Assembly (NCBI GenBank): GCA_021774615.1
Contig: JAJFIW010000010.1
Location: 10,230 to 74,229 of the forward strand
DNA from: Alphaproteobacteria bacterium
Lineage (GTDB): Bacteria > Pseudomonadota > Alphaproteobacteria > UBA1280 > UBA6503
Direction: 5' to 3'
DNA length: 64,000 nucleotides
The notes below the pieces were generated by a model that was not told the origin of the DNA, ran no database searches, and saw only the letters and a program-made list of their open reading frames with translations. The number at the start of each line of letters is the position of its first letter. Position 1 is the stretch's first letter. The position numbers and the translations under genes are program-made. Shown in pieces: positions 1 through 35,036 of the stretch.

Positions 1-1385
1 TGGTTACCAAATGTCTCTGGTTCAACCTTTTTGTTTGTAGCTTTTGCTTTTCTAGTAGAAGGAGGCCGTAATAGCTCGCCTTTATCGCCTGTTCTACGTT
101 CATCAAAAAATTGACCTGGGCGTGGTTTAACCACGGCATTTTCTGGGTCTGATAAAGCTTTCCTGTATTCTTCTAATGTTGCATTAGTCTGCCCAATAAT
201 TTTCATATTTCTCTTTGCTAACTCGTCAGGAGGAAGAGTTGTTGGGTCAACAATGACCTTATCATCTTCTAGCCTTGCTGATGTCTCTTTACGGCGATCT
301 GCACGTTTTCGGGCTATAGCCTCTTGTAATGCTGCAAATCTATCTACATCTTCAGGGATATCTAGTTCTTCATCTCCAACAATAGGTTCGCCAGCTTCAT
401 CAGGTGTAACATCGAGAATTTCTAGCTTTATATTACTTGGTTCTTGCTCTTGTGGTGCTAGTGCGACCTCAGGCGTAGGGGGTGTGATATCGTCATTCCT
501 AACGATAGCCTCAGCTTGTAGTGGATCTTCTTGGTTAGGCACAGTTGTAATAGGTACATCTTGTGCTACGTCATTTAATGTTCCAGTCCAACGAGATAGA
601 GACTCAATAGCGGTATCCTTATTCTGATAAAAGAAGAAAACCCCACCAACTAACATAATAATTAAAATAACAGATACAGCACCACCAGTTTTTGTGCCAA
701 TATCTGCGCCAACATTAGGAACATTGCCAGCTACTGTATCGCCAGGTAATATTGTTTTCTCGCCACTACTCTTCTTCTTCCATGGCGGAGTTTTCGGCGA
801 CTCAACCGCAGGAGCACTATCAAAAGGGGAACGGTCTGGCTCATCAGCAAATGGGGCTGATGCAGCTTTATTAACTGGCATGTCTACAAAGTCATCTAAG
901 TCCCACTGTTGGTTATCATCAGATACAATAACAGCTTCTTTGGTGTCTTCTGCCATCATAACAGTTTCATTACTATACTGTTTATTATCATTTCCACCTA
1001 AAATAGCCTCTGTTGATATATTGTGTTGATGAGGCGGTTTATTACTACTCATAGCCTCATGGTGGTCATCAGGGCGCGATACAGGTGTTTCTAGAACCAT
1101 ATCCTCTTCATCAAACTGGGCCTTAACAAACGGGTCTGGGATATCCTCAGGCATGCTAAAAGGGCTATTTGCTAAGTCAAATTTAGCATCTTTCTGCCCT
1201 GGAGGGGGTGGGATATCTTCAAGAATGTCAATATTGTCTTCTTTAGGGGCAATAGGTGTATCAGCGGCGGCAGCTTTATGCCCATCCGATGGTTTATCTG
1301 CTGCTAATGTTTTATCTTCCGCCTGTGTAACAAGTTCTTCATCAAACTTATTACTCTGACTTGGAAGTTTACGCTTCATAACCAT
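1..1385 (-). CDS. Partial CDS (3-prime end runs off the window): acidic, Pro-rich single-pass membrane protein immediately downstream of traC
   Basis: Manual reverse-complement translation from ATG 1385 (or 1379) stays open to nt 1 (>460 codons: MVMKRKLPSQSNKFDEELVTQAEDK ... GGAVSVILIIMLVGGVFFFYQNK ... RKAKATNKKVEPETFGN). It is absent from the ORF track because no stop lies inside the window. The Ser-rich + strand ORFs at 253-1359 are its antisense shadow. Confidence 0.6.
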   Translation of the reverse strand, partial: MVMKRKLPSQSNKFDEELVTQAEDKTLAADKPSDGHKAAAADTPIAPKEDNIDILEDIPPPPGQKDAKFDLANSPFSMPEDIPDPFVKAQFDEEDMVLETPVSRPDDHHEAMSSNKPPHQHNISTEAILGGNDNKQYSNETVMMAEDTKEAVIVSDDNQQWDLDDFVDMPVNKAASAPFADEPDRSPFDSAPAVESPKTPPWKKKSSGEKTILPGDTVAGNVPNVGADIGTKTGGAVSVILIIMLVGGVFFFYQNKDTAIESLSRWTGTLNDVAQDVPITTVPNQEDPLQAEAIVRNDDITPPTPEVALAPQEQEPSNIKLEILDVTPDEAGEPIVGDEELDIPEDVDRFAALQEAIARKRADRRKETSARLEDDKVIVDPTTLPPDELAKRNMKIIGQTNATLEEYRKALSDPENAVVKPRPGQFFDERRTGDKGELLRPPSTRKAKATNKKVEPETFGN

Positions 1386-1415
1386 TTGTTTAAAAGGCCC
1401 TGTCCTTCTTCTAAA

Positions 1416-4040
1416 TTAAGCAACACTCTTAGATGTATTATCACCTGTTATCTGCCGCTGTTTTGCTTCTGCTTGCTCCACTCGAACACCATTTGGGTAC
1501 ATCTGCGAAAATTTAATTGCTGCTTTCCATCTGTCACCACCATACTCTTTACCCAACCGAGCAAGCTCTGCAATATCATCTGGAGTTGTGGTTGCTAAAG
1601 CATAGGTTAGTTTATCACTAAGCAACCTACACACAACCTCTCCATGTGGCGACATCAAGTAAAACTCCGAGTAAAAACCTGGTTTTGTGTCAAGCGATGA
1701 AATATATTCGCTATGCCGCTCTGAACGAAGCCCTAAAGATTGCATTAATAATGGTATCATCTCGCGGCGTGGTTTAAGGATTAAGCGTTTGGTTATATTA
1801 CCAATAATAGCTTGCCCAACTTCCGAGGTTAAATCTTCCTCGTTCTGGGTTGCAATCCCGCACATGCAGTTTAACGAGCGGTAAGTCCTAAATGCTCTTT
1901 TTAGCTGGTTTGCCACAGTCTGCCCGCCTTTTGCAGTTACCATAGAAATCATCTCATCAACCAAGAGGTGCTTCTTCTCGCTACGGTCACCAGTATACAT
2001 AATATTATCAAGCATCGTGAAAATAGCATTGATGATAACGTCTGATATTTTCTCTGACAGTACATTTTGTAGGTTAAAAACAACCAAACCATCTTTATCT
2101 GTTACCGATGGCTGCGCATCAAACAAACGGCCGTAAACACCTTCTGAACAATATGACCCCATAACCTCTGCAGCTTCAAAGCCAAGGTTACGTTGGTCAG
2201 TACTAGAGTATGGGAACCGTAAGAATGCTTCTTTAATCCATGTTGGGCGCAATACATCACCTTCAGGGACAAGTTCGTAGGCAAACTGTATGATTTGCTC
2301 GTTTAAACGTGCTTCTTCACGTGCGGCTTCATAGGTACCACCATTCATCAACATTAGTTCTAGTGCATTAGACCATTGCTGCAAGCGGTGTTTTGTCATC
2401 TCGCCAGCAAATGGGTTAATACATGCGCTTTGGCTATCAAGGTCAATAATAACTAGTTTACCCATGGTTTCAGCAAAACGGTCGTAGTCGTCTTTAATGG
2501 TCATTAGGTATTGTTTTCTGATACCTGCTGCAAATAGCTGCAACGTTAAGTCAGTCACTGCAAAAGACTTACCAGAGCCCGATGTACCAGTAATAGCATA
2601 GTGCCAGTTAACAAAGTCGTTACTGGTATGGTCAAAAAATGTTACTTCACCGTCACGGTTAACATATACCGATTGAGGGTTGTCATGCCCACCCCAGTGC
2701 CCATGCACTGGTACAAGCTCGCATAAATCATCCGAAATAACCCGCCTAGTACGTGCAAATGGTTTGGTATATTCAAACCTAAATACCAAAGGCCAGCTAT
2801 ACACAATAGACTGCAAACACATACTTCTCTCAATATCGGGGACAACTGATAATTTCTTGAAGTTAGAGTTTATTCGCAACATTCTATCTTCAACCTCACG
2901 GCGAGAGTAACCATGGACAATAACCCCAAGCTGCATATACATAATACGCCGCCCACCAACCATCCGTAGTTTAACTTCGGATGCCTCTTGACCCACAATC
3001 ATAGATTCTTCACGAGAGAATACCGTAGAAACCCTTTGCCGTAATGCTGCACTAACCGTAAGCGCAACTTTCTCTAACGCTTGATTTGCTTGTTTTATAT
3101 TAACAAATACAGTGTACTGGGTAGGTAAGGTACGTCTAATCATACCTAAATAATCGGGAAATATCTGGTCTGGCATCATCGCAAGCATTACTGTGCCGTG
3201 GTAGTCATGGCCAATCCGCACAATGTCGTTGTCGTGTTCAATAGGTAGCGGTAAAATTTGTTCTTTAAAATCACGGTTCTTATCAATAGTGACTTTTTGC
3301 CCTGGCTCTTTATATGAAGGAGCATAAGCTGTCCAGTAGTGCCTTTTAAGTTCTTCAAGCCCCATACGCTCAACACTAAACATTCCATCAAGAGTTGACT
3401 CTACCGATACTAATGCTTCCTGGAACTCATTAGCGGTACGTTTCATGGACTTGGTCACCATGTCCATAATCGTAGGCATCGCAATACCAAAATGGCCCAC
3501 AAAGAAACTTGCTAACGACTCCAAAGACTGTAGCATAAATTTAAACAAGCCATATTCAGCATAAGCTTCAGGAGAACGCATGGTAATAACCATATAAGTA
3601 TCGCGCAGCATAGAATAACGCCCAGGTGCTACTTGGTAGCCATTAAAACCAGATTCTAGCAACTTCTCCGCACGTGAGTGGCGCAAAACCTTAGCTCTAT
3701 CATTAGGAGGCGATGCCTCCAAATAACGCTTCATCTTATCCTCAAGGTTATTATGCGAAGTAATAATAATTTGGGTTTCATAGTCGTATGGCAAATTCTC
3801 TAAGAATGTTTGCAACTCTCTTACTGTTTGCACATGCCCCTCATCGTAGGAATATGAAGGCGGGACTGGTGTTTTCCAGCAAATACCCAAAGCGCCATCT
3901 GCCAATAAGTGCACCTTATTAAACTGTGATTCTTCGCTATTTTCAAACTCGAAATAAGGTAGTTGGTCAACAAGCATTTGCTGCCTAATAGGTGAATAAT
4001 GGCTACCTGGAGGAACTCCTTTACGATTGTTATCTGCCAT
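1416..4040 (-). CDS. traC: F-type TraC / VirB4-family conjugative transfer ATPase
   Basis: 874 aa with Walker A ITGTSGSGKSFAV. Size matches F TraC, it directly follows a TraV-like lipoprotein, and GGAAGG lies upstream of the ATG. Confidence 0.85.
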   Translation of the reverse strand: MADNNRKGVPPGSHYSPIRQQMLVDQLPYFEFENSEESQFNKVHLLADGALGICWKTPVPPSYSYDEGHVQTVRELQTFLENLPYDYETQIIITSHNNLEDKMKRYLEASPPNDRAKVLRHSRAEKLLESGFNGYQVAPGRYSMLRDTYMVITMRSPEAYAEYGLFKFMLQSLESLASFFVGHFGIAMPTIMDMVTKSMKRTANEFQEALVSVESTLDGMFSVERMGLEELKRHYWTAYAPSYKEPGQKVTIDKNRDFKEQILPLPIEHDNDIVRIGHDYHGTVMLAMMPDQIFPDYLGMIRRTLPTQYTVFVNIKQANQALEKVALTVSAALRQRVSTVFSREESMIVGQEASEVKLRMVGGRRIMYMQLGVIVHGYSRREVEDRMLRINSNFKKLSVVPDIERSMCLQSIVYSWPLVFRFEYTKPFARTRRVISDDLCELVPVHGHWGGHDNPQSVYVNRDGEVTFFDHTSNDFVNWHYAITGTSGSGKSFAVTDLTLQLFAAGIRKQYLMTIKDDYDRFAETMGKLVIIDLDSQSACINPFAGEMTKHRLQQWSNALELMLMNGGTYEAAREEARLNEQIIQFAYELVPEGDVLRPTWIKEAFLRFPYSSTDQRNLGFEAAEVMGSYCSEGVYGRLFDAQPSVTDKDGLVVFNLQNVLSEKISDVIINAIFTMLDNIMYTGDRSEKKHLLVDEMISMVTAKGGQTVANQLKRAFRTYRSLNCMCGIATQNEEDLTSEVGQAIIGNITKRLILKPRREMIPLLMQSLGLRSERHSEYISSLDTKPGFYSEFYLMSPHGEVVCRLLSDKLTYALATTTPDDIAELARLGKEYGGDRWKAAIKFSQMYPNGVRVEQAEAKQRQITGDNTSKSVA

Positions 4041-4049: not shown

Positions 4050-4439
4050 CTACCTTCCTCTACCAAAGGCTGGTTGCTCATTTTCTGGCAGAACCCACTC
4101 ATATCTGTCAGTTAAGAAAATAGTTGCCCAATTACCAAACACACGGGTGTTATCATCGGTTACATGCGGGAAATTCCATACTAATAGTGTTTTAGGTGGT
4201 GCTACAACTGCTAGCTCTTTCTCTGGTAAGTAACTAGGGCGATTAATTTGTGGCCGCGGTAATGCTGGCAACGGTTCACCACCCGGCCCCATAATTGGCG
4301 CACGGTTAGAAGTACGCGACAAAGCATCATCCATAGAAATAGGGTTCTCTGGTGGCAAAGCACCACCATAAAATTTACACCCAGACAGAAGTAAACCGCC
4401 CAATAACATTAATAGTATATTACGACTCAGCAATTTCAT
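4050..4439 (-). CDS. traV: TraV-like outer-membrane lipoprotein of the T4SS core
   Basis: Start moved to ATG 4439 (AGGAGA 8 nt upstream), giving MKLLSRNILLMLLGGLLLSGC with a lipobox. The C-terminus LLVWNFPHVTDDNTRVFGNWATIFLTDRYEW resembles the F TraV C-terminus as I recall it. It sits between traB and traC as in F. Confidence 0.6.
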   Translation of the reverse strand: MKLLSRNILLMLLGGLLLSGCKFYGGALPPENPISMDDALSRTSNRAPIMGPGGEPLPALPRPQINRPSYLPEKELAVVAPPKTLLVWNFPHVTDDNTRVFGNWATIFLTDRYEWVLPENEQPAFGRGR

Positions 4440-4461
4440 TAGGCTTATTTCTCCTATAAAT

Positions 4462-5844
4462 CTATAGTACATTGTCAGCATTAAATAATAACGACCAGGC
4501 GTTACCTTCGGCGCGTAACTCAGTCCCACTTAGTAGAACAACATGAACTTTACGCATTGCATCAATCCGAATAAATGGTGACACACGCTCTGCACGCTCA
4601 AGCAAAAAGTCGGTTAAACGGTTAGTTGCACTAGCAACACCACCAGCAACAGATGCCCTAGCGTCGCTACCAGTCAAGAATGAAGAGTTAGTACCACTAG
4701 AATCCGTCACATTAGTAGACTGGTTACTGCTAATAACATTCGCAACACCTGCAGCAAACTGCGCTGCCATCGCTAAAGCTATCCGCCCAGAGTCACCCTC
4801 GAAAAACAGTCCAGGAACACCTTCAAGACCATCCTCAGCATCTACCACATAGCCTGTAATATCATAAGTAACCGCACCACGGTCAGGGTAAACACATGTC
4901 ATCCTGCTTGGTTTGCCTCTAGCACGTTCTGTAGATATATCGCCTTCAAACTCTAACAACATAAAACACCCATCGAGCATAACGGTAGAATTCATCGCTG
5001 TTTTATAAACACCATGCAAACGAGCCAATGACGGTGTAGCAACACCACTAGTGGCCAAAGCGTCGACACCATTTAATAAAGTTGCCTTAATAAACCCTAA
5101 AGGTGGAAGAAATGGGAGCGCGTCCTCTGGCTCAAGCTGATCAACGCCCCCTTGCCCCTCCGGGGATGCTACAACACCACCCGCAACACCTTGTAATAAT
5201 GCTTGGTTCCCAGAAACATTAGGGTTACCAGGAGAACTAAGACGAGTTTCAGAAATACGGCTAGGGGTACGGCGACGCACTTGTGTTTCTTCTTGTTGCT
5301 TTGCCGTCACAGAACGCAACCCTTGGCGCCGTGCTTCTTCAACCAAACGTGATATTTCATCACGCTGGCGAGCGTTAGATTGCTCCATAATTTGCATTTG
5401 CCCGTTAAGGACCTTCATGGTTTCTTGTAGCTGTGACTGCAACTGCTGCATTTCCTGTGCGCGTTGCTCAAATTCTCTTTGTTGTTGGCTAGATTGTTTT
5501 TGGATCTCGCTACGCATTTGTTGGAGAGCCTGTGTCTGTTGGGTCACAAAACCACGCCTAAGGGATGATCTATCTGGCCCTACAGGAGTAAAACCGTCTC
5601 TATTTTCTTCTACTCGTTCGATGTTTTGCTCAACTGCTATCATCTGTGAAGGGGCCTCCACAACTGGTGGTGGTTGGACCTCTTCTCCACCGCTACGCAT
5701 CAAGAATACCACAAAGAAAAACACAAATAGCCCAATAACACCAAACTTTGCATTTGGTGGGAGCTCGTTAAACCTTTGGATTCCGCCAGCTAAGCTATTA
5801 TCTTCTGCTGTACTGCCACCCATGCTGCCATGCTGTTCAGACAT
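4462..5844 (-). CDS. traB: TraB-like (VirB10/TrbI-family) T4SS core protein
   Basis: 460 aa with an N-terminal TM (FGVIGLFVFFFVVFLM), a Gln-rich coiled-coil segment and a C-terminal beta-rich domain. It lies immediately upstream of traV-traC as in F. Confidence 0.65.
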   Translation of the reverse strand: MSEQHGSMGGSTAEDNSLAGGIQRFNELPPNAKFGVIGLFVFFFVVFLMRSGGEEVQPPPVVEAPSQMIAVEQNIERVEENRDGFTPVGPDRSSLRRGFVTQQTQALQQMRSEIQKQSSQQQREFEQRAQEMQQLQSQLQETMKVLNGQMQIMEQSNARQRDEISRLVEEARRQGLRSVTAKQQEETQVRRRTPSRISETRLSSPGNPNVSGNQALLQGVAGGVVASPEGQGGVDQLEPEDALPFLPPLGFIKATLLNGVDALATSGVATPSLARLHGVYKTAMNSTVMLDGCFMLLEFEGDISTERARGKPSRMTCVYPDRGAVTYDITGYVVDAEDGLEGVPGLFFEGDSGRIALAMAAQFAAGVANVISSNQSTNVTDSSGTNSSFLTGSDARASVAGGVASATNRLTDFLLERAERVSPFIRIDAMRKVHVVLLSGTELRAEGNAWSLLFNADNVL

Positions 5845-6006: not shown

Positions 6007-8052
6007 TTATACAACTGGTGCATCTGTAAAAGCAGCATATGGAACTTGTGACTTTTCATCTTCAGTGCTAGTAGCTGCAAGAATATCGTATAGCTCGCTA
6101 GGTGGAGTGCCATACCAATAAGCCTTAATATATTCTTCTTTAGAATTTCTATACAAATTATGGCGCAGCCTAAGCAACCTAATTGCTTGTTCTGACATAC
6201 CAATAACAGCTTGTGCCAACCCAGAGTTTAGAGATTCCATATCTTCATAAGAATTGGGGTGGGTTTCTTCTTTGTCAAAAAACAAGTCTTCTAAATATTC
6301 TAAGTTTAAAGGGAATATGGCCTTAATAAGTTCTGGCGGGGATAAATCCTCGAAGTATCTATTTAATTGCGGATAGTCATAAATTGCTTCAGTGGTAGTA
6401 GTTACCATAAGGCTTGTGTCCCTAAACCATGGGGCGTCAATATCATGAGGGGTAGCAGCAATATACGAGGCAGGGCGCACGCTAGACTCAATAATAGGGC
6501 ATATATTCTCTTCTTCTTTAAAAGGTACGACTTTTTCTGACAAGCGTTTACGAGGATCCAACTCAGGTAACCACCAATTATCTAGCTCAAACTCGAAAAG
6601 TAGCGGTAGTGGGTGGTAGCCAACATCGCAAGAGTCCTCTCCATCATCAAACCTACGTAAAGTAGTTAAAGGCAACACCTTATTTTCATAACGTCTTTTT
6701 AGCTCTGCTCTGTCCATAATATCGTAACCACGCATTGAGATTACAGGGTAAAAACGTTCCTTCATCCCATCTGGTACACGCACTAATAGTTGGTTATTCT
6801 TAAGTTTATCGTTTTCGTAAGAGTTAATAACCTTATCTACACTCTCATAATAATAATGGAGAGGGTCCCACAAAGGGCCACGAGATTGCACAAAATGGCT
6901 ACTTTTAGCACACCACCCCCATATGGCAGGTGCTTCAAAATGGATAGGATGGGTCGGGATCCAAGCTGCCCCCCATTTAGCAGAAAGTCGCTGATGAGGT
7001 AGCCTTAGATCTGGTGTTTTAGGCTTTGGGTTGCCATTGTGTGGTGATACATACTTAGTACCATCGCTTACCACAACTTCTGCAGGTTGAACATGATACG
7101 ACAACATATACCCCGGCCTTATAACTTCTAAAATAGTACCTTCTGGTGCATCGCTTTCGCGGCGTTCTTTAATTGTATGAAGCCCCTGCACTGCTCTGCC
7201 TTGCCAAAAACCCTCAAGCTCAAAATTTGCGCCAACTTTATTATAGCCATTAAACGCTTCTATAGTCGGGATAAGAGTACAACCATCTGTAAATATCTGC
7301 TCGAAGAATTCATCTCCGCAGGAGCTGATAAAATCATCATAACCTTGCCCTTCAGGACGGCTTGACCAACGTTTCATGAGGTCTGCTGCTACTTGTTCTG
7401 CCTTATCTGGGGTTGTCTTATTTACAAATAGCATTTCGAGTTGGGGTAGTTTCCAGCCGTCTATATAAAATGTATCAAGGCGCAATTTATATGGGTACAA
7501 ATTTGCACTCGAGTATACATAAGGAAGCCCCACATCTGGCATATCTACAGGGGAAAATATCCTATTTAATGACATTTCTAAAGTTCTGAACCCTGTTAGA
7601 AATACATTTTCTAGCAATTTATTAATTTGTTGGTCGGTAACTAGCCTTACGCCTTTAGGTAAATGAGCATTCTGGATGCGGCTGTCGGATGACCATTCAT
7701 CACTTTTGCGTTGCTCGGGCCCTGTGCCAAGGTAAACTGTACGCCCTGCAAGGTCTCTTGCAAAAAGAGGTGAAATTGGCACTTCGTCATTATTCCCTGG
7801 AGCATCTTTAAACCAGCCTTTTATAGTATTATGCCCTAAAACATTACCAACAGGGGGTATCTTTAAAAAAGATGGGATATATAAGTTACTACCACTTTTA
7901 AGCTCGTCTCTGTTAAATAAAGCACTACTTGAGGCTAAAGAAGGATGCATCCCCTCCCATAAATTCCAGCGCATACCGAATACATCTAAACGAACAGTCG
8001 GGGTGGCGCCTTCTTTGTCACCCCAACCAGATTTATAGCCAAATAAGTCCAT
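6007..8052 (-). CDS. Hypothetical 681-aa Trp-rich protein with no signal peptide and no recognisable motif
   Basis: Long uninterrupted ORF co-directional with the tra genes, between traG and traB. No TM, lipobox, Walker or HUH motif was seen by eye. Confidence 0.6.
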   Translation of the reverse strand: MDLFGYKSGWGDKEGATPTVRLDVFGMRWNLWEGMHPSLASSSALFNRDELKSGSNLYIPSFLKIPPVGNVLGHNTIKGWFKDAPGNNDEVPISPLFARDLAGRTVYLGTGPEQRKSDEWSSDSRIQNAHLPKGVRLVTDQQINKLLENVFLTGFRTLEMSLNRIFSPVDMPDVGLPYVYSSANLYPYKLRLDTFYIDGWKLPQLEMLFVNKTTPDKAEQVAADLMKRWSSRPEGQGYDDFISSCGDEFFEQIFTDGCTLIPTIEAFNGYNKVGANFELEGFWQGRAVQGLHTIKERRESDAPEGTILEVIRPGYMLSYHVQPAEVVVSDGTKYVSPHNGNPKPKTPDLRLPHQRLSAKWGAAWIPTHPIHFEAPAIWGWCAKSSHFVQSRGPLWDPLHYYYESVDKVINSYENDKLKNNQLLVRVPDGMKERFYPVISMRGYDIMDRAELKRRYENKVLPLTTLRRFDDGEDSCDVGYHPLPLLFEFELDNWWLPELDPRKRLSEKVVPFKEEENICPIIESSVRPASYIAATPHDIDAPWFRDTSLMVTTTTEAIYDYPQLNRYFEDLSPPELIKAIFPLNLEYLEDLFFDKEETHPNSYEDMESLNSGLAQAVIGMSEQAIRLLRLRHNLYRNSKEEYIKAYWYGTPPSELYDILAATSTEDEKSQVPYAAFTDAPVV

Positions 8053-10957: not shown

Positions 10958-10977
10958 AAATAATCCCTTTTCTAATT

Positions 10978-26557: not shown

Positions 26558-27699
26558 CAGTCTATTTTAACTCCTATCTCAAGAACCATACTCTGACCAG
26601 TTGCACCACTACCACTACGCTCTATGTAGCGAATCCAAGGTCTATCTTTTAAAGTTGATTCAGCAACCCGCTCTTGGTCTACTAGGAGGTATTTCTCCCC
26701 GCCTTCAACAATTACTTTTATTGGTAATACACTTTCTTGCGCCCAGCCAACATTGCCAGTATCAGAGACTTTTTTAACAAGACTACTGCTTACACGGCGA
26801 GTTTCCACTTCTACTACTTTAACTTCACCTAATATAGAAGCTACCTCTCCGACTGCATGTATAACAGAAGATGGCCTTTGTTTAAGAGGGCGTTTTATAA
26901 AATCTAGTATTTCATTGGGGTTACCAACATTACCTAGTCGTTGCGTGCTTTTTGTTTCTTTAATTTGCCGTTCAATATTAGTAATGTCATCTCTTAAGTC
27001 GCTTAGTTCTAGGCGGCTTGTTACAGCAGAAATAATAGATGCCACAAGCAAAATTAAAGCAACCATAGCAAAAATTACATATACAAGGCCGTGGTCACGG
27101 TGCACATAAAGAGGTCTAGCTATTTTAGCTGGCGACAACTCTGAAAAACGAATAACATTTTGTGATAAAGGCTCTAAGGACTCTACAATATTGCTGTATA
27201 TCTTGTCATCATGCACTGCTACGCATATATTCTCGCGCATACCACTTGCAATACGCTCAGATATAGACTGTACCAATATGCTATTTAGGGCATCGGTAGA
27301 AGTATTATTAAAGCGTGAGATACCCCAACTAACAGAACCATCGTCATTAACATTACGTACACCGTGGATAACAACACCTTTAGGGAATACATAATAAAAT
27401 ACACTTGTGCCATCAGGAGCGAAATCTTCTGGTAGAAATACTTCTAAACCGTGGCGTCGCTCTTGGATATTTTTAGGAAGCAAGCCATAAACAACAACTG
27501 TGCCACCTTCTTGACGCCACAACGGAATTTGCTGGATATCCCCATAGCGCTCTTTAACACTGCTGGTGTTAATAGTGCCAATGTCTGTAAATTGTCTTGT
27601 TTGCTCTCGTGAAGATACAAAAAGTGCTAAAGCATCTGAACGACCTTTATCCGCATAATGAACCCCACTACGGGAGAATACCATGATATTTTTACTCAT
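26557..27699 (-). CDS. Bitopic pilus assembly protein (R64 PilO-like / PilM-N-like)
   Basis: 380 aa with a central TM (LVYVIFAMVALILLVASIISAV) separating a ~200-aa cytoplasmic part from a ~150-aa periplasmic part. It lies directly downstream of the GspF-like gene. Confidence 0.4.
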   Translation of the reverse strand: MSKNIMVFSRSGVHYADKGRSDALALFVSSREQTRQFTDIGTINTSSVKERYGDIQQIPLWRQEGGTVVVYGLLPKNIQERRHGLEVFLPEDFAPDGTSVFYYVFPKGVVIHGVRNVNDDGSVSWGISRFNNTSTDALNSILVQSISERIASGMRENICVAVHDDKIYSNIVESLEPLSQNVIRFSELSPAKIARPLYVHRDHGLVYVIFAMVALILLVASIISAVTSRLELSDLRDDITNIERQIKETKSTQRLGNVGNPNEILDFIKRPLKQRPSSVIHAVGEVASILGEVKVVEVETRRVSSSLVKKVSDTGNVGWAQESVLPIKVIVEGGEKYLLVDQERVAESTLKDRPWIRYIERSGSGATGQSMVLEIGVKID

Positions 27700-27715
27700 A
27701 TCTTTTTCCTCCCTC

Positions 27716-28798
27716 TTAAAATTCCATTAATGCAAATATAGGTGCTACTAGACTAGTATACATACTTACGATAAATAAGGGTAGCAATCCAGCCATCACA
27801 ATTAACATTAGTGTACCAACAGCTCTACGCATTATTCGATCATACTCTGCTGCATAAGGTTTTTTAAGGTCTTCTATTCGTTCGGCTATTTGACCAGTTT
27901 TTTCCCCAGCCTCAACAGCACTACGGAATGAGCCTTTTAATGGCACCCGTGCTAAAGCGTCACCAACTCGCATTCCTGCTTCGTGTTCGCTTGCAGCAAT
28001 CCTAAAGTTATTACCTATCATCCTGTTTTCTAGCGACCGTGCAACAGCACGCAATACATCATGAATAGGCATACCAGAGCGAACCAACGCTGGCATAAAA
28101 TATACTACTAATACTCCATTAAATGCTATAGAAATACGCCGCAATGGTGCAAGCCGCCAAATAATTCTCTCTACAAACGGTTTCATAGTCTCAGTATTAC
28201 GGGTTAAAAATAATACAGGCGGAATTGCTAATAAAACCAGAGGTACAAACCAATTGTCTTGCATCCACACAGAGAAATACCAAAAGCCACGCACAATACT
28301 AGGGAATTCATTAATTGCATCAGGTTTACGGTCAAGAACAGGGCCTAACACTAGGGGTAGCATAAACATTGCTACCCCTAACGACATAACAATAAGCATA
28401 AACCCACCAACAACTGGCATTGCTAGCTGGCGGTATAAGGATCGTGTAGAGTTCATGCGCATCTCGAGCGCTTCCACTAATTCTGGGATAGCAATACGTA
28501 GCTGGTTAGAGCGTTCGGCAGCATCTAATACTGATAGTTCTTGGTCTGTAAAGCCTAGTCCTGCTTGTCTGAGTGCATGAACTAGTGTTGTTTGTCCAGA
28601 CTCGAACTCAACAACAACCCGATTCATCCGGTTTGCTAAGGTTTTGTATTCGTCACGGGAGAAGGCGTCACAAGTATTGCGCACAGCCTCACTAACAGGC
28701 ATTTGTCCGCTACCAGAGGTTAACCATGAGGATAATGTACGGAAAAACTCAATCCTATCCCCAAGAGCTAAACTACTTATGCCAATTTCGATTCCCAT
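27716..28798 (-). CDS. GspF/PilC-family inner-membrane platform protein (R64 PilR-like)
   Basis: 360 aa with two repeated cytoplasmic helical domains, each followed by TM helices (MPVVGGFMLIVMSLGVAMFML; GTLMLIVMAGLLPLFIV). It lies immediately after the GspE-type ATPase. Confidence 0.8.
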   Translation of the reverse strand: MGIEIGISSLALGDRIEFFRTLSSWLTSGSGQMPVSEAVRNTCDAFSRDEYKTLANRMNRVVVEFESGQTTLVHALRQAGLGFTDQELSVLDAAERSNQLRIAIPELVEALEMRMNSTRSLYRQLAMPVVGGFMLIVMSLGVAMFMLPLVLGPVLDRKPDAINEFPSIVRGFWYFSVWMQDNWFVPLVLLAIPPVLFLTRNTETMKPFVERIIWRLAPLRRISIAFNGVLVVYFMPALVRSGMPIHDVLRAVARSLENRMIGNNFRIAASEHEAGMRVGDALARVPLKGSFRSAVEAGEKTGQIAERIEDLKKPYAAEYDRIMRRAVGTLMLIVMAGLLPLFIVSMYTSLVAPIFALMEF

Positions 28799-28838
28799 AA
28801 CCTATAGTCATCCCTTAAACTACTAAGTACCTACGGTT

Positions 28839-31253
28839 TTATATCCGTACATCTTCAGCTGATTTACTAATTTTCTTCTCTCTAACCACGTCTTTATCAC
28901 GTACTTCTATAGATAGCTCAAGGATAACACGCCCCAGCTCTTCGGCATCAGTGATACCGGCTTTAACGTGCATAATTCCCATATGCCCCATTGGCTTCCA
29001 ACCTGCCGCAATTGCAATTTCTTCAAGGCGGTTAAAGTCTCGGTCGGCTGTTGCTTGAACCATTTCTTTATTTGGTACCAACCACTCAGCTACGGCTATT
29101 CGCCCACGATAACCTGTAAACCCACAGTTAGGGCAGCCATCAGGGCTTGCCCGATATAGCTCCGACCCTTCAACAGGAACTTTGTAATAATCAAAACAAA
29201 ATTGCGTCCATTCGTCGGGCTTGTCCATCGTTTGGCGACAATGGGTACACAACCTCCGGACCAATCTTTGTGCTGCAATACCACGAACATACGAAACCAA
29301 GAAACCACGAATGCCTAACTCGTCCAAACGAACAATTGCATCAACAGAAGTATTAGTGTGCAATGTAGAAAATACCAAGTGACCAGTGTTAGCAGCTTCA
29401 AAAACTAACTTTGCCATTGTATTATCACGAACCTCACCAAAGATAATAACATCAGGGTCAGCCCTAAGTGATGACTTAAGTAACTCTGTACCACTCCTTG
29501 AGCTATCACCCTCAGCTACTTCCATTTGTACAGCGTAACCTTCAACCCTTTTCTCGGGAGGGTCTTCAATGGTATGAACACTTAAACCACGTGCCATTGG
29601 GTTTGCACTAATAACAGCCGAGTGGATAGACTCTGTTTTACCAGACCCTGTAGGCCCAGTCCAAAATATAACACCATTTGAAGCACTGGCCGCAGCTTGT
29701 ATACTTGCAATAAACTCGTCAGAATAACCTAAACGTTCCATTGACAAAGAGTCAGGGTTCAAACGCCGGATAACAATCCGTGGTACAGGCCCTAGACGCC
29801 CTGAATGGGGCTGTATCTGAACACGCCAGTCAAAACCAGCACGAGAAAATGCGCCTTTATTAGGGTGGTTTTGGTTTACCTTAGGCATCCGTGCAATGTT
29901 CTCAATCCGCACTCTTAGCCGCTCAAGCTGATCTAGGGAAACAACCTCACGCGGGCGAACCATACCATCGACACGGTATTTAACAGTGGCTTTATTCTCC
30001 CCTTTCATATTGGGGTCAATATGAATATCTGATGCTTTAGCATCTACCGCAGTTGTTACAATCCGGTCAAGTAATGCTTCAGCTTCCATCCCCTCATCAA
30101 GGTCAGCACCTTCGTCTCCACTTACCCAGAACTGCCCACAAACATCTTTAACTGCAAAGTGCCAGACAAACTGGAACCCAGGCATAACTTCGAGCAACAT
30201 CGACTCTAGTACTAAGTCTCTCATATCGCTGTCATGTGCAAGGTGTAATTCGTGAGCATCTTTCTCGCGCTTACGTAGTGGGATAATCCTTCTTTCACGT
30301 AGCAGGTTTTGTATCCTGATATCAAGCTCTTTACGTAAAGACCTTGCACCATCGGGCAAATCCTGAATACTCATAATTTCTAGCCGGTTCTGGCTACGAG
30401 CAATTGCCCTTGCTAATTGCTGACGGTCAATAAGTTGTTCATTAATTAGGTCTCTTACTGACAGCTGTGGTAAGCGGTCTTCCTCAATAAGCTCTTTAAT
30501 ACGTGCTACAGCAAGGCTATCAACGTTTAAATCTTCACTAATTCGTAAAACATTTAACGCTCGTAAATAAAGCCTTTCATGAGAAGGGCGGGTATTATCT
30601 TCGCCTTGGCCGTATAGATCATCAGTCTCTTTATCACGTTCTAAAACAAGATCAGGGAGGGAATCTTCTGTTCCATGCTCAATATCTGCAACTAGATCTG
30701 TATCTGGTAAGTCATCAAACCCGAAGGATAAATCATCAATTTCTGAGAATTCATCTTCTTCTGGCAAATCAACCTCTTGGAATTCTAAGCCATCTATTGT
30801 ATCTGTTGCTTTACCAGTATTTTTACCCACTGGCGCTGACATAACCATATTCTCTGTTTCGTCATCAAGGAAGTCATCTAAACTGCTAGCATCACTCTTG
30901 CCTGATAGCTCATGTTCATGCCCCTCATCTTTTACAGAGTCATCATCAAGGCTAACTTCATCAAAAACATCTTCTACAAAATCATGGATAGGCTCTTCAG
31001 AAGAGCTATTGTCCAGAAAATCATCTAGCACTTCATCATCACTCTTCTCAATGTTATTGTCATCATGACTTTCTTGAGAGTTTGGTGAAGGTGGCATAGT
31101 TTCTAGTATGTCTTCGTCAGAAACAGCAACATCCTGATCTTGCAACTGCTGATCAGGATTTTGCTGTTCTACTTGTTCTTTGGATATATCAACGCTGTCT
31201 GCGGCATCTTCTTCTACCGCAGACGACGTTGACTTTTCTTTTTCATCAACCAT
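28839..31253 (-). CDS. GspE/PilB-family type IV pilus assembly ATPase (R64 PilQ-like) with a ~215-aa acidic N-terminal extension
   Basis: Walker A GPTGSGKT, Walker B/Asp box DPDVIIFGEVRD, His box GHLVFSTLHTN and tetracysteine CTHC...CPNC. N-terminal residues 1-215 are >35% Asp/Glu with repeated LDDFLD. Confidence 0.9.
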   Translation of the reverse strand: MVDEKEKSTSSAVEEDAADSVDISKEQVEQQNPDQQLQDQDVAVSDEDILETMPPSPNSQESHDDNNIEKSDDEVLDDFLDNSSSEEPIHDFVEDVFDEVSLDDDSVKDEGHEHELSGKSDASSLDDFLDDETENMVMSAPVGKNTGKATDTIDGLEFQEVDLPEEDEFSEIDDLSFGFDDLPDTDLVADIEHGTEDSLPDLVLERDKETDDLYGQGEDNTRPSHERLYLRALNVLRISEDLNVDSLAVARIKELIEEDRLPQLSVRDLINEQLIDRQQLARAIARSQNRLEIMSIQDLPDGARSLRKELDIRIQNLLRERRIIPLRKREKDAHELHLAHDSDMRDLVLESMLLEVMPGFQFVWHFAVKDVCGQFWVSGDEGADLDEGMEAEALLDRIVTTAVDAKASDIHIDPNMKGENKATVKYRVDGMVRPREVVSLDQLERLRVRIENIARMPKVNQNHPNKGAFSRAGFDWRVQIQPHSGRLGPVPRIVIRRLNPDSLSMERLGYSDEFIASIQAAASASNGVIFWTGPTGSGKTESIHSAVISANPMARGLSVHTIEDPPEKRVEGYAVQMEVAEGDSSRSGTELLKSSLRADPDVIIFGEVRDNTMAKLVFEAANTGHLVFSTLHTNTSVDAIVRLDELGIRGFLVSYVRGIAAQRLVRRLCTHCRQTMDKPDEWTQFCFDYYKVPVEGSELYRASPDGCPNCGFTGYRGRIAVAEWLVPNKEMVQATADRDFNRLEEIAIAAGWKPMGHMGIMHVKAGITDAEELGRVILELSIEVRDKDVVREKKISKSAEDVRI

Positions 31254-31309
31254 TCATGAACCAGTTATTTCTTATATTATTGTCTGCTTCATTTACTAAC
31301 AAACTAATC

Positions 31310-31903
31310 TTACTGCACAACGTTTGCAAAGTAACGTAAAGTAATAGTAGCTGTCAGAGCAGGGTCAGTAGCTGCACGAAGACGCCCAGTCTGCCAATCT
31401 GCACCATTGTCCATTGCTTCATCTGCACTTTCGAACTCGTCAGACGGTACACCTGTCATCTCAAACACCATAAATGTTTGACCAGCATCAACAGCAGTTG
31501 TTAACCCAACTGTACCTGTACCTGCACCAAACGGGTGGTTAACAGTACCCCCATCATTTCTGTAGCCCTGCAAATAGTTACGGAAGTTACCAGAACCTTG
31601 CAGCGCAGCTTGTAATGCAGTTTCTAAGATTAAAGTTGAGAATGTAACCGTAGTATCAGCAGGTGTTGCACTAGCCTGATGTGGCCACAAGTTATACTGA
31701 GCAAAGAAAGAGCCCGTAGCATTTTCGAACTGCACCAAATGTGACTGCAATTTAGTACTACCTGCACGAGTAAGTAAGTCCCACCCAACAGAGCCAATAA
31801 TCATCGTAACAAGAATTGCAATAACCGCAACAATCAGAATTGTTTGGTCAATGGTGTAACCTGCTTGACGACGTAAATTTTGTTTAAAACTAGAGTAACT
31901 CAT
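31310..31903 (-). CDS. Type IVb prepilin, major pilin candidate (R64 PilS-like)
   Basis: Start moved to ATG 31903 (GGGGA upstream): the leader MSYSSFKQNLRRQAG is followed by YTIDQTILIVAVIAILVTMIIG. About 180 aa mature, located between the secretin and ATPase genes. Confidence 0.65.
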   Translation of the reverse strand: MSYSSFKQNLRRQAGYTIDQTILIVAVIAILVTMIIGSVGWDLLTRAGSTKLQSHLVQFENATGSFFAQYNLWPHQASATPADTTVTFSTLILETALQAALQGSGNFRNYLQGYRNDGGTVNHPFGAGTGTVGLTTAVDAGQTFMVFEMTGVPSDEFESADEAMDNGADWQTGRLRAATDPALTATITLRYFANVVQ

Positions 31904-32019
31904 TTTATTTTTCCCCATGTTAAGCTTAATATTTAGTATTCTATCACACACTTAGTTAATATGGTGACGAACCATTTGTTTTTAAAGTTATTATTATTCT
32001 TTTACTATAAATAAGCCTC

Positions 32020-33894
32020 TTACTTAAGCCGTCTAACCTGCATTAATACCAAGAACTCCACATCTTCAAACGAGATGTTTTCTTCATTAACACCTTTACC
32101 AGCAATTGGAATTCCACGTAGAATCGGAACACCAGACTCTTTATCAATTGCAATTGTACGAGTTAAACCACCAATTACTTTAACTTCACCATCACGCATC
32201 CGCACTTTCTGGTCAATAATCCTAGTATTTACAACTGGGATATCATCAGAAAATTGCTGGCCATTAAAGTTTTGGATCAAGGCTTCTTGGGCAACAATTT
32301 CCGTAATAGGGATTTGCACCGCAATTGTATGAGGGTCGTTACCACTAGCAATTTGTGCAGTAACCGCAAACTGGATCCCTTCGAATTGAGATTTCTGTGT
32401 TGCTGTAGTATTTACAATATTACCACCGTCAGATGCAATAACCTCACTCTCACGAACAAAGAATACATCATTACGGCCATCAATTAATATAGCCTTTTGC
32501 CTATCCATAACCTCTAAGGTTGGTTTCATAAGCTGATAAGTAGTAGAGAAACTCTCGATAAACCTAACCACACCCTCTATTGAGTTATCACGGATACCGG
32601 CAAAACCACCCGCACTAGTAAGGTTTGCCAACATACCTGCTATAGAGTCGTTAGGTCCACCAATTCTAGGAGTATCAGCACCTGAAAAACCAACACCTAT
32701 ATTAGAATTTTTAATACCTACATCTAAGATTGACGCAAGTTTTGTACCTTGTTCAAAAGAACGCTCTTTACTAACCGCAATAATACGGGCTTCAACCAGT
32801 AAGCGACGGCTTGCGATGTCTTCTGTTTGTTTAATGATTAAATCAGCATCACGCAGCACTCTACGAGAAGCTTGCATTTGCACTACACCCACCGAACGGT
32901 TTAAGCGTACATAACCACAAGGGAGCTCTACAGCTACATTGCCACTACTATCGCCAACACTAGATGGAGGCGATAATAACCCTGATGAGCTACTACCATC
33001 ACTGGTATTACAAGAATTACTTATCAATGTTTCAAGGTCTGTCTTAAGTTCATCTATCAAGTCTCTATCTTGACGAATAACAACCTCAGCAGAACCACCT
33101 ACGGCATTGTCTCCACTGCCACCAGCTTCATTACTTCCTGTGTCAGAGCTAGCAGAGCCACCACTCAATGAAGCGCTATAACTAATACTTTGTGTTTCAC
33201 TACGTAAAGGTTCGTATAGGTTTAGTTTCCAAGTCCTTGTAGGCAGGCCACCAATAGAGAAATAGTCGCCTTGCTCAACCAATGTTAGCCCATGAGGAAC
33301 AAGGATTGCATCAAAAGCATCGGTACATGTTATATCTTTAAAAGATGCACTAACTCGTGTGTTCGCTAAACGCTCGCGGTTTTCAGTAATAACTAAGTTC
33401 ATGTCACATTGTTTTGCTAAACCACGGATTGCATCAACCAAAGCGACATCATCCCCAGGAGAGAATTGTTCAATTCTGGCAACATCAGCCGCTGGCAAAA
33501 CTAATAAACGGCGCTCGCCTTCACGGACGATCTGAACCTTATAAACATCTTCTATATAACTACGAGCTTCATTAAATTTTAAGTCTGCGATTAAAAGATC
33601 TTTACCAGAATTTTTCCTAATACCAGCACCATAACGTATAGCAACATTATAAGTGTTTGCTACTTGTTCCATTAAGTCACTTAGCGTTACATGCCCTTCA
33701 ACTCTTAAAATAGCATCCGCACGCATTTGGCGGCTAGAGATAGGCTCTCCAACACCAACTACAGCAGAGCCATTCTCGCGATAGTCTTTAAAGGCATTAG
33801 CAGGGCTTTCGCGCTGCACATAACTAACATTATCACACGCTGCTAATGCAACTGTAGTAACTGCTAGGCAAACAAATAAGATCTTCTTAAGCAT
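32020..33894 (-). CDS. Lipoprotein secretin of a type IVb pilus (R64 PilN / BfpB-like)
   Basis: Lipobox VALAAC. The C-terminal secretin signature is VIGGLTRTIAIDKESGVPILRGIPIAGKG...FLVLMQV. Confidence 0.85.
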   Translation of the reverse strand: MLKKILFVCLAVTTVALAACDNVSYVQRESPANAFKDYRENGSAVVGVGEPISSRQMRADAILRVEGHVTLSDLMEQVANTYNVAIRYGAGIRKNSGKDLLIADLKFNEARSYIEDVYKVQIVREGERRLLVLPAADVARIEQFSPGDDVALVDAIRGLAKQCDMNLVITENRERLANTRVSASFKDITCTDAFDAILVPHGLTLVEQGDYFSIGGLPTRTWKLNLYEPLRSETQSISYSASLSGGSASSDTGSNEAGGSGDNAVGGSAEVVIRQDRDLIDELKTDLETLISNSCNTSDGSSSSGLLSPPSSVGDSSGNVAVELPCGYVRLNRSVGVVQMQASRRVLRDADLIIKQTEDIASRRLLVEARIIAVSKERSFEQGTKLASILDVGIKNSNIGVGFSGADTPRIGGPNDSIAGMLANLTSAGGFAGIRDNSIEGVVRFIESFSTTYQLMKPTLEVMDRQKAILIDGRNDVFFVRESEVIASDGGNIVNTTATQKSQFEGIQFAVTAQIASGNDPHTIAVQIPITEIVAQEALIQNFNGQQFSDDIPVVNTRIIDQKVRMRDGEVKVIGGLTRTIAIDKESGVPILRGIPIAGKGVNEENISFEDVEFLVLMQVRRLK

Positions 33895-35036
33895 TACTGA
33901 ACCCCATTAAATCCAAATCGGTTAGTTTGTGTCACAACCACTAGCTTACCGCCAGGGAAGATCTCGTACTTCAAGTTAAACAACCTAAGCAAACGCTCCA
34001 TCGCTACAGAGAACGGCTCTTCAATATGTGCAGGTTTTAACACTTGGTCAACCCCAGCATAAATACGCAGGCGCCATTGTCCTTTACCAGCTTGGTTAAC
34101 CATACTTTCTAGTGCATCTACTAATGGTATCTCGTCGTAATGAAGAGAGATCATAGACTCTTTTAAGAAATGTTCTGTAACTATAGGGTCTTTCTCTGCC
34201 TCAACACCTATTGGTGACACAGTGTTCTGTGCTAACCTATGCCCTGATGCACGGTCTGTAATAACTAGGCGGTGTGTATTATCGTAGCGAATTACCCGTA
34301 ATGGCTGCCCAGACCGAGTCTGTAAGCGTGCCAGAAGTGCATTCAGAACATTAACGAATGGCTCGTGTGCATCGATAGATATCTCCATTTCTGCTAAAGG
34401 CATATTTTGCTCGGATAAATCCCACATAATAGTCCAGTCGTTAGCGCCAATCTGGTCCATCATCCGTTGTAGTACACGACGAACAGTTACCCGTTCTTCG
34501 CGAACTCGGATAAGGCTATTGTTCATGTCTACCATTGCACGGCCAGACACTTGGCCAACAGCAACCTCAACACCGCCATTTGCGGTAAAGGTTGGGGTCT
34601 GTTGCACAAAACCACCTACAGCATTAGCTGGGGCTGGTTGATGACCTCTAGGGTCAAACTGTCGTTGTTGCCCCATGCTTGGGTTAGCAGCACCATTCCT
34701 TTGTTGGTCTGCAATGCGGTTCATTTCAGTGTCAATATCGCTACCAGAACCTGCAATACGGTTCATCTCACGCTCAAAATCGTCAGAGCCAACACCATTA
34801 TTATTGCCTGCCGCTTGTGCTAATATGGCTTGTTCATGGTTTTGGCGGAGCTCAACCTGATCTTTCATCCTAAATTGTTGATGGTCTGGCACATAAACCC
34901 CACGAGTATCATCCACATATGCAGGGGCACGAACTTGTGCAACTGGTGGTACATAGCCTGGTACAGCTTGGGCCCAAGCAGAGCTACTGAAAAAGATTGT
35001 CAGTGCAAAAACGCTAAGGTGCGTCGTCATTGGCAT
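33894..35036 (-). CDS. Secreted protein with two PilL/TcpQ-like domains (first gene of the pilus cluster)
   Basis: Signal peptide ending SSAWA-QA. Two copies of the pattern: VRRVLQRMMDQIG..DWTIMWDL...RLVITD and LVDALESMVNQAG.GQWRLRIY...KLVVVTQ. Its stop overlaps the secretin start. Confidence 0.5.
   Translation of the reverse strand: MPMTTHLSVFALTIFFSSSAWAQAVPGYVPPVAQVRAPAYVDDTRGVYVPDHQQFRMKDQVELRQNHEQAILAQAAGNNNGVGSDDFEREMNRIAGSGSDIDTEMNRIADQQRNGAANPSMGQQRQFDPRGHQPAPANAVGGFVQQTPTFTANGGVEVAVGQVSGRAMVDMNNSLIRVREERVTVRRVLQRMMDQIGANDWTIMWDLSEQNMPLAEMEISIDAHEPFVNVLNALLARLQTRSGQPLRVIRYDNTHRLVITDRASGHRLAQNTVSPIGVEAEKDPIVTEHFLKESMISLHYDEIPLVDALESMVNQAGKGQWRLRIYAGVDQVLKPAHIEEPFSVAMERLLRLFNLKYEIFPGGKLVVVTQTNRFGFNGVQ

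Follow-up and report, generated by a model that had tools for sequence, protein, structure and literature searches.

The window analysed here is a stretch of 64,000 nt from an alphaproteobacterium of the UBA6503 lineage (GCA_021774615.1, contig JAJFIW010000010.1, positions 10,230–74,229). From nt 35036 down to nt 1 it carries an unbroken chain of 27 open reading frames (ORFs), all on the minus strand and spaced by −68 nt (overlap) to +294 nt, which confirms the co-directional block with short gaps and overlaps described in an earlier, sequence-only reading of this DNA. The right-hand half of the block (20232–35036) is a type IV pilus (T4P) cluster and the left-hand half (1–20003) a type IV secretion system (T4SS) cluster. 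The leftmost ORF starts at 1385 and extends past nt 1, so that the left end of the block is cut. The joining of the two clusters, to which the earlier reading had drawn attention, recurs in the same order in relatives; the pilus and T4SS clusters are one conserved unit.

The pilus half opens with a PilL/TcpQ-like secreted protein, the first gene of the block (33894–35036; weak match to Pfam TcpQ, 1.6e-3), followed by a secretin lipoprotein with a LAAC lipobox (32020–33894; Pfam Secretin, 7.7e-17) and by a long-leader pilin (31310–31951; RRQAG/YTIDQ, with Gln for Glu at +5) whose position is kept in all relatives. The 804-aa assembly ATPase (28839–31253) is of the GspE/PilB type (Pfam T2SSE, 6.3e-72; GspE 242 bits, PilB 233 bits) and carries a disordered N-terminal extension of ~390 aa; next to it lies the GspF/PilC platform protein (27716–28798; Pfam T2SSF, 5.5e-22). 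Three assembly proteins span 25423–27699: a secreted one of 218 aa, one of 164 aa and a bitopic one of 380 aa with PilO/GspL-like topology. None of the three matches a known family, and their gene order is kept in L010–L015 (we refer to the related loci by such labels). Two pilin-like proteins are encoded in 23026–25338, one of 360 aa with an N-terminal hydrophobic helix and one of 393 aa (23026–24207) with the motif RRDSG/FTMPE and an N_methyl match; the pilin leaders are ~15–20 aa long. The 151-aa prepilin-peptidase-like protein (22558–23013) consists of the N-terminal zinc-finger domain A24_N (Pfam A24_N_bact, 9.8e-28) and transmembrane (TM) helices only: Pfam finds no Peptidase_A24 aspartyl domain in it, and the same short form (115–174 aa) occurs in every relative. 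For want of a peptidase domain, either the pilins would be cleaved by another enzyme or the 151-aa protein would have a different role. The last pilus genes encode two lipoproteins of 533 and 207 aa (20232–22474) with LAGC lipoboxes and related C-termini, for which neither Pfam nor NCBIfam gives a family match.

A lipoprotein secretin, a PilL/TcpQ-like protein, an ATPase, a platform protein and long-leader pilins are thus found in a single cluster, the combination by which type IVb pili are recognised. The parts list of the sequence-only reading (lipoprotein secretin, GspE-type ATPase, GspF-type platform, both leader motifs and a bitopic protein) agrees with our results. Its PilL/TcpQ-like and PilO/PilP-like proteins stand as far as the weak TcpQ match and the bitopic topology of the 380-aa protein go; orthology to PilO and PilP was not supported by any profile match. 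Its description of the pilus as R64-like had to be given up. The secretin scores 105 bits with MshL versus 24 bits with R64-type PilN (TIGR02520). Profiles built from orthologues of the window's lineage of metagenome-assembled genomes (MAGs) were compared with IncI, F and SXT-like references, and the ATPase profile gives 169 bits with the ATPase of IncP-2 megaplasmids versus 89 bits with IncI PilQ. The pilin profile matches IncI PilS (E 4e-3) and the GspF profile IncI PilR (18 bits); PilN is matched at E 0.03 and PilL at E 0.16, and IncI PilO, PilP and PilV gave no match with these profiles. Neither a shufflon nor PilV nor Rci was found in the window, where clustered inverted repeats and a recombinase are both lacking and the last pil genes encode the two lipoproteins. 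Judged by its architecture, the pilus half is a T4b-like type IV filament system, not an orthologue of the R64 pilus.

From the last pilus gene it is 228 nt to the first gene of the secretion half; this gap contains promoter-like sites and a near-perfect palindrome of 18+18 nt without spacer (20052–20087) that looks operator-like. The secretion half begins with a VirB2/TraA-like T4SS pilin (19632–20003), recognised by Pfam TrbC/VirB2 (4.7e-5), a signal peptide and two hydrophobic segments; its profile matches H-type TraA (E 1.7e-3). TraL (VirB3-like, 87 aa, 19263–19526) is identified via orthologues: the window copy gives no match, the L016 orthologue matches Pfam TraL at 3.1e-4 and the orthologue on plasmid pOS401, which is described below, at 7e-3. 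TraE (VirB8-like, 18451–19080; Pfam TraE, 2.1e-4; TIGR02761, 4.2e-4) is followed by a secreted protein in the TraK/VirB9 position (17705–18454), weakly assigned from its signal peptide and position. The pOS401 homologue of the latter (40 bits) gives a faint TraK_C match (E 0.011); the TraK-like profile has no PDB sequence match, and tblastn found no plasmid match. A hairpin with a T-run lies 3′ of this gene (17688–17658). Next comes a VirB1-like lytic transglycosylase (16772–17545; Pfam SLT, 1.9e-4; VirB1 NF010438, 1.3e-3) and, beyond a group of inserted genes, TraB/VirB10 (4462–5844; Pfam TrbI, 5.8e-14), a TraV-like outer-membrane lipoprotein with an LLLSGC lipobox (4050–4442, probable start 4442) and the TraC/VirB4 ATPase (1416–4040).

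TraB scores 80 bits with the F-type TraB model NF010289, below its cut-off, and the lineage profile gives 65 bits with H_TraB and 60 bits with F_TraB. Among PDB entries the TraV-like family profile matches F-type TraV best (7OKN/7SPB, E 0.017), and the protein lies between TraB and TraC as in F. TraC matches TIGR02746 and the Pfam models P-loop_TraG and TraC_F_IV and is nearest to the F type of mating-pair formation (MPF) systems, H/SXT subtype: TIGR02746 (F-type) gives 195 bits versus a cut-off of 567, the MPF-G traC_PFL_4706-type model 82 bits (cut-off 521) and VirB4_CagE (class T) 64 bits, and the lineage profile gives 118 bits with H-type (SXT/IncA/C-like) TraC versus 40 bits with F TraC. 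Its identity to any TraC in PLSDB is below 25%, the best being that of pOS401. At the cut end lies an acidic, low-complexity, bitopic membrane protein (1–1385, N-terminal 461 aa), which is 654 aa long in a UBA6503 relative; orthologues follow TraC in L002, L003, L006–L008 and L016, and the L002 orthologue has no Pfam match.

TraW, TraU, TrbC, TraN, TraF and TraH gave no Pfam or NCBIfam match in the window or among the downstream genes of L002. The lineage profiles, set against the F and SXT-like references for the same components, found nothing either, with only a faintly TraF-like thioredoxin in relatives. MPF-F is defined by 12 profiles, including TraW, TraU, TraF, TrbC and TraH (Guglielmini et al. 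2014). Of the T4SS proteins named by the sequence-only reading, TraC and TraB are clear, the VirB2-like pilin and TraE are weakly matched, TraL is upheld by its orthologues and TraV by the PDB match of its family. TraK holds by position and through the faint match of the pOS401 homologue, without a counterpart in PDB, and TraH found no support. The proposed MPF-F class is indeed the best-scoring one; full membership did not hold, with six components undetected and all scores far below the curated cut-offs. We regard the T4SS as a probably reduced and very divergent channel whose nearest class is MPF-F. A ~90-nt element with two hairpins was noticed in the traL–traE gap (19169–19254) and again, with ~85% identity, at 59889–59973, upstream of an ORF at 60060. 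The second copy has fold z-scores of −4.5 and −6.4 on its two strands and no Rfam match; the element is not present in L016, a distant relative with a TraL–TraE gap of 22 nt.

Between the TraK-like protein and TraB lie, besides the VirB1-like transglycosylase, a helicase, a ParB-domain protein and proteins of 548, 950 and 681 aa. The transglycosylase, the helicase, the ParB-domain protein and the divergent gene discussed below had not been named before. The helicase (15033–16772) belongs to the UvrD/Rep family of superfamily 1 (Pfam UvrD-helicase, 1.3e-18; UvrD_C, 1.1e-14) and has orthologues in L016 and, beside a coupling protein, on pOS401 (102 bits). The 699-aa protein encoded at 12639–14738 contains a central ParB/Spo0J-type domain (TIGR00180 parB_part, 4.5e-8, aa 335–459; PDB Spo0J 1VZ0, E 6e-4), and its L016 orthologue is 51% identical. 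The 548-aa protein (10978–12624) carries a signal peptide and would be secreted or periplasmic; it has no Pfam, NCBIfam or PDB match, and a homologue lies 3′ of TraC on pOS401. The 950-aa protein (8105–10957) is polytopic, with at least five TM segments, and is a possible TraG_N/VirB6 analogue. It has 114 representatives among 1.84e9 proteins and no direct TraG match, and 2 of the 40 scanned family members match Pfam TraG_N (best E 2.3e-4), which lends the previously named TraG weak, transitive support. Its AlphaFold2 (AF2) model is poor (pLDDT 66) and gave no Foldseek fold match, and tblastn found no plasmid match. The 681-aa cytoplasmic protein (6007–8052) is confidently modelled (AF2 pLDDT 89, pTM 0.90) and forms a novel family specific to the system, with 175 homologues, all within this system, unnamed and without Pfam domains. 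Foldseek found no PDB fold match for its AF2 model beyond a local GrpE-like segment of ~120 aa (E 0.03), and PDB sequence searches with the 681-, 548- and 699-aa proteins matched only the ParB domain. The 548-, 950- and 681-aa proteins are 40–49% identical to those of the UBA6503 relative versus 85% for TraC, and the 681-aa protein is ~40–46% identical whichever relative is taken; in distant relatives a 645/1265-aa pair is inverted. From these identities, the genes at 6007–12624 appear to be a fast-evolving or exchangeable module in a conserved machine.

On the plus strand, divergent from pil, a gene at 35172–36524 encodes a membrane-anchored protein of 450 aa, whose family is named "HD domain-containing protein". 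It is always divergent from pil in L010–L015 and L022; on pOS401 its homologue is the first gene of the cluster and co-directional. With tblastn the protein matched 138 plasmids at 26% identity, the alignment covering 64% of the query; 131 of these are Pseudomonas megaplasmids of the IncP-2/pBT2436-like type, in which the gene is annotated under that family name. The family profile gives 68 bits with the megaplasmid HD gene, and Pfam HD 21.3 bits on the Pseudomonas homologue. The alignment shows QD or KD in place of the HD doublet in L010, L015 and the window (QD in the window), as throughout the MAG lineage, and an intact doublet in pOS401 and Pseudomonas; D167, H201 and H350 are invariant. 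No homology to MobH was detected, and the divergent intergenic region showed no structure resembling an origin of transfer, only conserved promoter-like blocks.

The order pil-then-tra is identical in the window, in the UBA6503-like pair L012 and L002, in L011 and in L010 and L016, the last two overlapping on one contig of a distant MAG (TraC 63% and ATPase 55% identity). There the order is pil, VirB2-like pilin, TraL, TraE, TraK-like protein, UvrD, ParB, a 560-aa protein, the inverted 645/1265-aa pair, TraB, TraV-like protein and TraC. L010, L014, L015 and L022 (RI_95, fairly close) have an extra block beyond pil, upstream of the divergent gene, with a thioredoxin (faint TraF match), a 110-aa protein, a VirD4-type coupling protein (T4CP) of ~470 aa (TraG-D_C) and four small proteins. 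Since the coupling protein and the thioredoxin are encoded there, the pilus cluster has T4SS genes to either side. The 110-aa family also matches pOS401. Of this block, no more than two small genes are retained in the window, L012 and L011; in the window they encode 98 aa (37511–37807) and 171 aa (38641–39156) on the minus strand, and they were identified by tblastn versus L010, L011 and L012. A loss of the T4CP in the window's clade, read from its absence from the hit list, was set aside as unreliable: the T4CP of RI_95 exists and had not been listed.

To the right of the block lie yifB, recF, a gene for an HtrA-like protease, gyrB, two genes for ankyrin-repeat proteins, dnaN and mnmE. The block resembles the rest of the window in GC content (0.38–0.45) and GC skew, with no compositional break, and a search of the window for a tRNA, an Rfam element, an integrase or an att-like flanking direct repeat found none. 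Pfam and NCBIfam scans and lineage profiles gave no relaxase or T4CP match among the window proteins; the lack of a relaxase, coupling protein, integrase and TraN, TraU, TraW, TraF or TrbC in the window had been recognised correctly from the outset. Exact-product look-ups with TraC, TraB and the 681-aa protein yielded no extension of the contig to the left, and the UBA6503 relative L002 served as proxy for the sequence left of nt 1. There, TraC is followed by the acidic membrane protein and by proteins of 296, 242 and 243 aa without family match, and farther on by a protein with a PD-(D/E)XK nuclease domain and by EAL, queuosine-salvage, SURF1 and MurJ genes. Among the five L002 genes after TraC there is no tra, relaxase, T4CP or integrase match; the 296-aa protein is 60–71% identical in all relatives.

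EAL or SURF1 flanks recur among the relatives; the upstream flank differs in L011, and the right housekeeping flank is common to the window and L012. YifB is 74% identical between the window and L012, and the proteins of the system are 48–85% identical; for the UBA6503 relative the values are 85% for TraC, 72% for TraB and 74% for YifB. All TraC relatives with 62–85% identity come from MAGs whose labels read Proteobacteria, Alphaproteobacteria or "Magnetococcales", and the contigs that carry them reach ~1 Mb. Because of the housekeeping flanks, the recurring EAL/SURF1 flanks and the YifB-like divergence, we read this as the pattern of a chromosomal locus that is resident and vertically inherited, not of a recently acquired element. 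The earlier suggestion of an incomplete plasmid or integrative and conjugative element (ICE) could not be sustained, given the housekeeping neighbours, the missing integrase, tRNA and att sites, the even GC content and the housekeeping-like divergence.

Three further observations concern the neighbourhood of the block. The two ankyrin-repeat proteins between gyrB and dnaN (51817–53472 and 55062–56015) may hint at a eukaryote-associated lifestyle; the idea of a Micavibrio-like predator was dropped, as the Micavibrio genome paper reports no T4SS. Two nearly identical terminator-like hairpins of 39 nt (42795–42833 and 43963–44001; AAAAGCCCCTCT..AGAGGGGCTTTT) bracket an unannotated 368-aa ORF (42854–43960). 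A 51-nt direct repeat with 94% identity occurs at 57368–57418 and 57539–57589, one copy forming the 3′ end of mnmE and the other lying in the dnaN–mnmE intergenic region.

Comparison with 72,556 PLSDB plasmid records returned one record with the whole system, pOS401 (AP026971.1) from a Comamonadaceae isolate, where it occupies ~67–106 kb; the pairing is therefore not already common in annotated plasmids, as the sequence-only reading had supposed. Fourteen families are shared, with scores of 194 bits for the T4CP, 206 for TraC, 110 for TraB, 102 for UvrD and 93 for the ATPase. On pOS401, pilus-type ATPases lie upstream of the order VirB1-A-L-E-K-B-V-C, and a short T4CP is directly followed by the UvrD-like helicase; the 548-aa homologue, an SLT protein and a thioredoxin are present as well. 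Within PLSDB its TraC stands as a singleton. Typing classes the plasmid as non-mobilizable, and the genes of this region are nearly all annotated as hypothetical, despite a full T4SS, a T4CP, a helicase and a pilus-type cluster, from which it follows that mobility typing misses this family. pOS401 differs from the window in that the system is plasmid-borne, its TraC shares only ~25% identity, the F-like gene order is not interrupted by the inserted module, and a second ATPase and a ParM-like protein are additionally encoded.

A more partial kinship extends to the IncP-2/pBT2436-like and pQBR103/57 megaplasmids, whose backbone resembles the window in having an HD gene that is divergent from a cluster of the T4P/T2SS type; a short T4CP-like ATPase gene lies next to the HD gene. 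Besides the HD and ATPase scores given above (68 and 169 bits), the lineage profiles match the secretin of the IncP-2-type backbone at 18 bits. In the IncP-2-like megaplasmid NZ_CP138358.1 the T4CP-like ATPase, the HD gene and the divergent T4P cluster lie at 56–70 kb, beside radical-SAM genes, and this layout is a candidate for the uncharacterised transfer functions of the megaplasmids. IncP-2/pBT2436 and pQBR103/57 plasmids conjugate, carry a T4P cluster of unknown role and have no identifiable relaxase (PMC7070040, PMC13391042). Unlike the window, the megaplasmids have no TraC/VirB4-type cluster annotated in the 79 kb around the pilus cluster, and no related TraC was found in them; unlike the MAG lineage, they have an intact HD motif.

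With a probability of about one half, we propose that the block belongs to a so far undescribed family of T4P-coupled T4SS and is a copy fixed in the chromosome; it would be likely to translocate DNA. The conserved pil–tra order, the T4SS genes on both sides of pil and the occurrence on pOS401 are the reasons for treating the two clusters as one unit and not as two neighbours, and the HD-family gene and the pilus ATPase link this unit to the IncP-2/pBT2436/pQBR megaplasmid backbone. In the proposed system, one machine would be a complete T2SS/T4P-type pilus built from the PilL/TcpQ-like protein, secretin, pilins, GspE, GspF, bitopic proteins and terminal lipoproteins. The other would be a reduced F-lineage channel comprising the VirB2-like pilin, TraL, TraE, the TraK-like protein, the VirB1-like enzyme, TraB, the TraV-like protein, TraC and the TraG_N-like protein. 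The UvrD-like helicase, the ParB-domain and novel proteins and the divergent HD-family gene would also belong to it, as would, in relatives and on pOS401, a short T4CP and a thioredoxin. The pilus may make and tighten the contact with a target cell, by contact and retraction, and so replace the missing F-pilus functions; the envelope channel, powered by TraC, would move the substrate, most likely DNA, which could be unwound by the helicase, prepared with the help of the HD-family and ParB-domain proteins and passed on by the coupling protein. Of the conjugative two-pilus apparatus first suggested, the unit of pil and T4SS genes stands. The sequence data show the gene content, the conserved synteny, the chromosomal and vertically inherited state and the kinship with pOS401 and the megaplasmid module; a conjugative function we infer, as we do that the two machines act together and that the substrate is DNA.

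Several points weigh against this proposal. No relaxase was recognised anywhere in the system, whether in the window, in the relatives or on pOS401, and the T4SS assignments other than TraC and TraB all lean on sub-threshold scores. The prepilin peptidase is without a catalytic domain, and pilin processing would have to rely on another enzyme; the divergent gene has QD or KD in place of its HD motif throughout the MAG lineage. The window, L012 and L011 are without the coupling-protein block at its usual place, and a T4CP-less function is possible. Long-term vertical retention, moreover, is unusual for a purely conjugative machine and fits a host-beneficial function better.

Such a function could be that of a domesticated apparatus for interaction with a host or prey, with the pilus serving attachment and the reduced T4SS serving protein delivery or a contact function, and no longer DNA transfer. 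Vertical inheritance at a stable chromosomal site would be expected of it, and the coupling-protein block missing from its usual place in three loci, the replacement of HD by QD, the two ankyrin-repeat proteins in the same window and the fast-evolving 548/950/681-aa module within a conserved machine point the same way. There is also a precedent in the epibiotic Saccharibacteria, where T4P and T4SS are both essential (PMC12857230). Yet the UvrD-like helicase and the ParB-domain protein are kept in all relatives, and the coupling protein is kept in the fairly close relative RI_95, and we consider a domesticated apparatus, the main rival, possible but less probable. F-lineage T4SSs, besides, are not known to deliver effectors.

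That the block is instead part of a plasmid or ICE with a two-pilus mating apparatus, with its relaxase, coupling protein and integrase encoded a short way beyond the window, seems improbable. A plasmid, pOS401, does carry the same system, the left end is cut and the upstream flank differs in L011. However, in L002 (85% identical TraC) TraC is followed by five genes that give no tra or mobility-gene match and then by EAL, queuosine salvage, SURF1 and MurJ; the right flank consists of housekeeping genes common to L012, with no tRNA, att repeat or GC shift, and the divergence of the system equals that of YifB. Least probable is the mere adjacency of two unrelated systems: the gap with its promoter-like sites and palindrome does part the clusters, and the IncP-2 megaplasmids have the pilus module with no VirB4/TraC-type cluster annotated in the 79 kb around it, but adjacency and orientation have persisted over deep divergence and also hold on pOS401, and in relatives T4SS genes stand on both sides of the pilus cluster. 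Our preferred reading thus remains the T4P-coupled, probably DNA-translocating T4SS fixed in the chromosome.

More tentatively, the family may be an unrecognised class of T4SS, derived from the F lineage, dependent on a co-encoded T4P where F uses its own pilus-assembly and mating-stabilisation proteins, and using non-canonical DNA processing (HD-family, UvrD-like and ParB-domain proteins and a short T4CP) in place of a known relaxase. It would occur both as a plasmid system (pOS401, with modules in IncP-2 and pQBR plasmids) and, in an uncultured lineage that resembles alphaproteobacteria, as an organelle encoded in the chromosome and inherited vertically, maybe central to the lifestyle as in Saccharibacteria. 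The missing F components are precisely those of pilus dynamics and mating-pair stabilisation, which makes the substitution by a T4P directly testable, and the cultured host of pOS401 and the IncP-2 and pQBR plasmids offer ways to test the system. For the clinically important IncP-2/pBT2436 and the pQBR megaplasmids, the shared module of HD gene, T4P and short T4CP provides a lead on how transfer could proceed in relaxase-less conjugation. The family also holds several confidently folded proteins without known structural relatives, and it places a conjugation-type machine, fixed in the chromosome, in a widespread uncultured marine lineage.

As the sequence-only reading had held, T4P pairings are described for MPF-I and MPF-G and none for MPF-F: two reviews of 2025, one on T4SS nomenclature and one on plasmid mobility, mention no others than IncI-type plasmids (R64) and PAPI-1, and no description of a T4P with an F-like T4SS was found in the literature. 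With partnerships known for these two classes, the present family would be a third and very different case, and the latest T4SS review stresses T4P–T4SS cooperation as an open question. R64 (IncI1) resembles the window in that a T4P cluster is co-resident with a T4SS, and both share the gene logic of PilL-like protein, lipoprotein secretin, bitopic protein, ATPase, platform, long-leader pilins and peptidase-like gene. The window differs from R64 in its F-lineage T4SS (that of R64 is MPF-I, Dot/Icm-like), its truncated peptidase and its chromosomal location. PilV, a shufflon and Rci are missing from it, as is a PilT transglycosylase within pil, and its secretin and PilL are barely related to those of R64. 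ICEs of the PAPI-1/ICEclc type (MPF-G) likewise tie a T4P genetically to a divergent T4SS with many hypothetical proteins, and in PAPI-1 the T4P is essential for transfer (PMC12857230). In contrast to these elements, the window TraC scores far lower with MPF-G than with F (82 versus 195 bits), F-type TraL, TraE, TraB and TraV are recognisable, and there is no integrase or tRNA site.

With MPF-F systems (the F plasmid and the H-subtype SXT/R391, IncA/C and pCAR1-like elements) the window shares the order A-L-E-K...B-V-C. Unlike them, it has SLT, UvrD, ParB and three novel proteins between K and B and a T4P machine attached, and both a MOBF/MOBH relaxase and TraW, TraU, TraN, TraF, TraH and TrbC are absent. 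A chromosomal F-lineage T4SS with partition-type proteins is also found in the gonococcal genetic island, where the F-like T4SS secretes chromosomal DNA, in a species whose T4P takes up DNA (see also PMC12857230 and PMC6736028). The island is set apart from the window by its full F gene set, its MOBH relaxase and a T4P that is encoded elsewhere.

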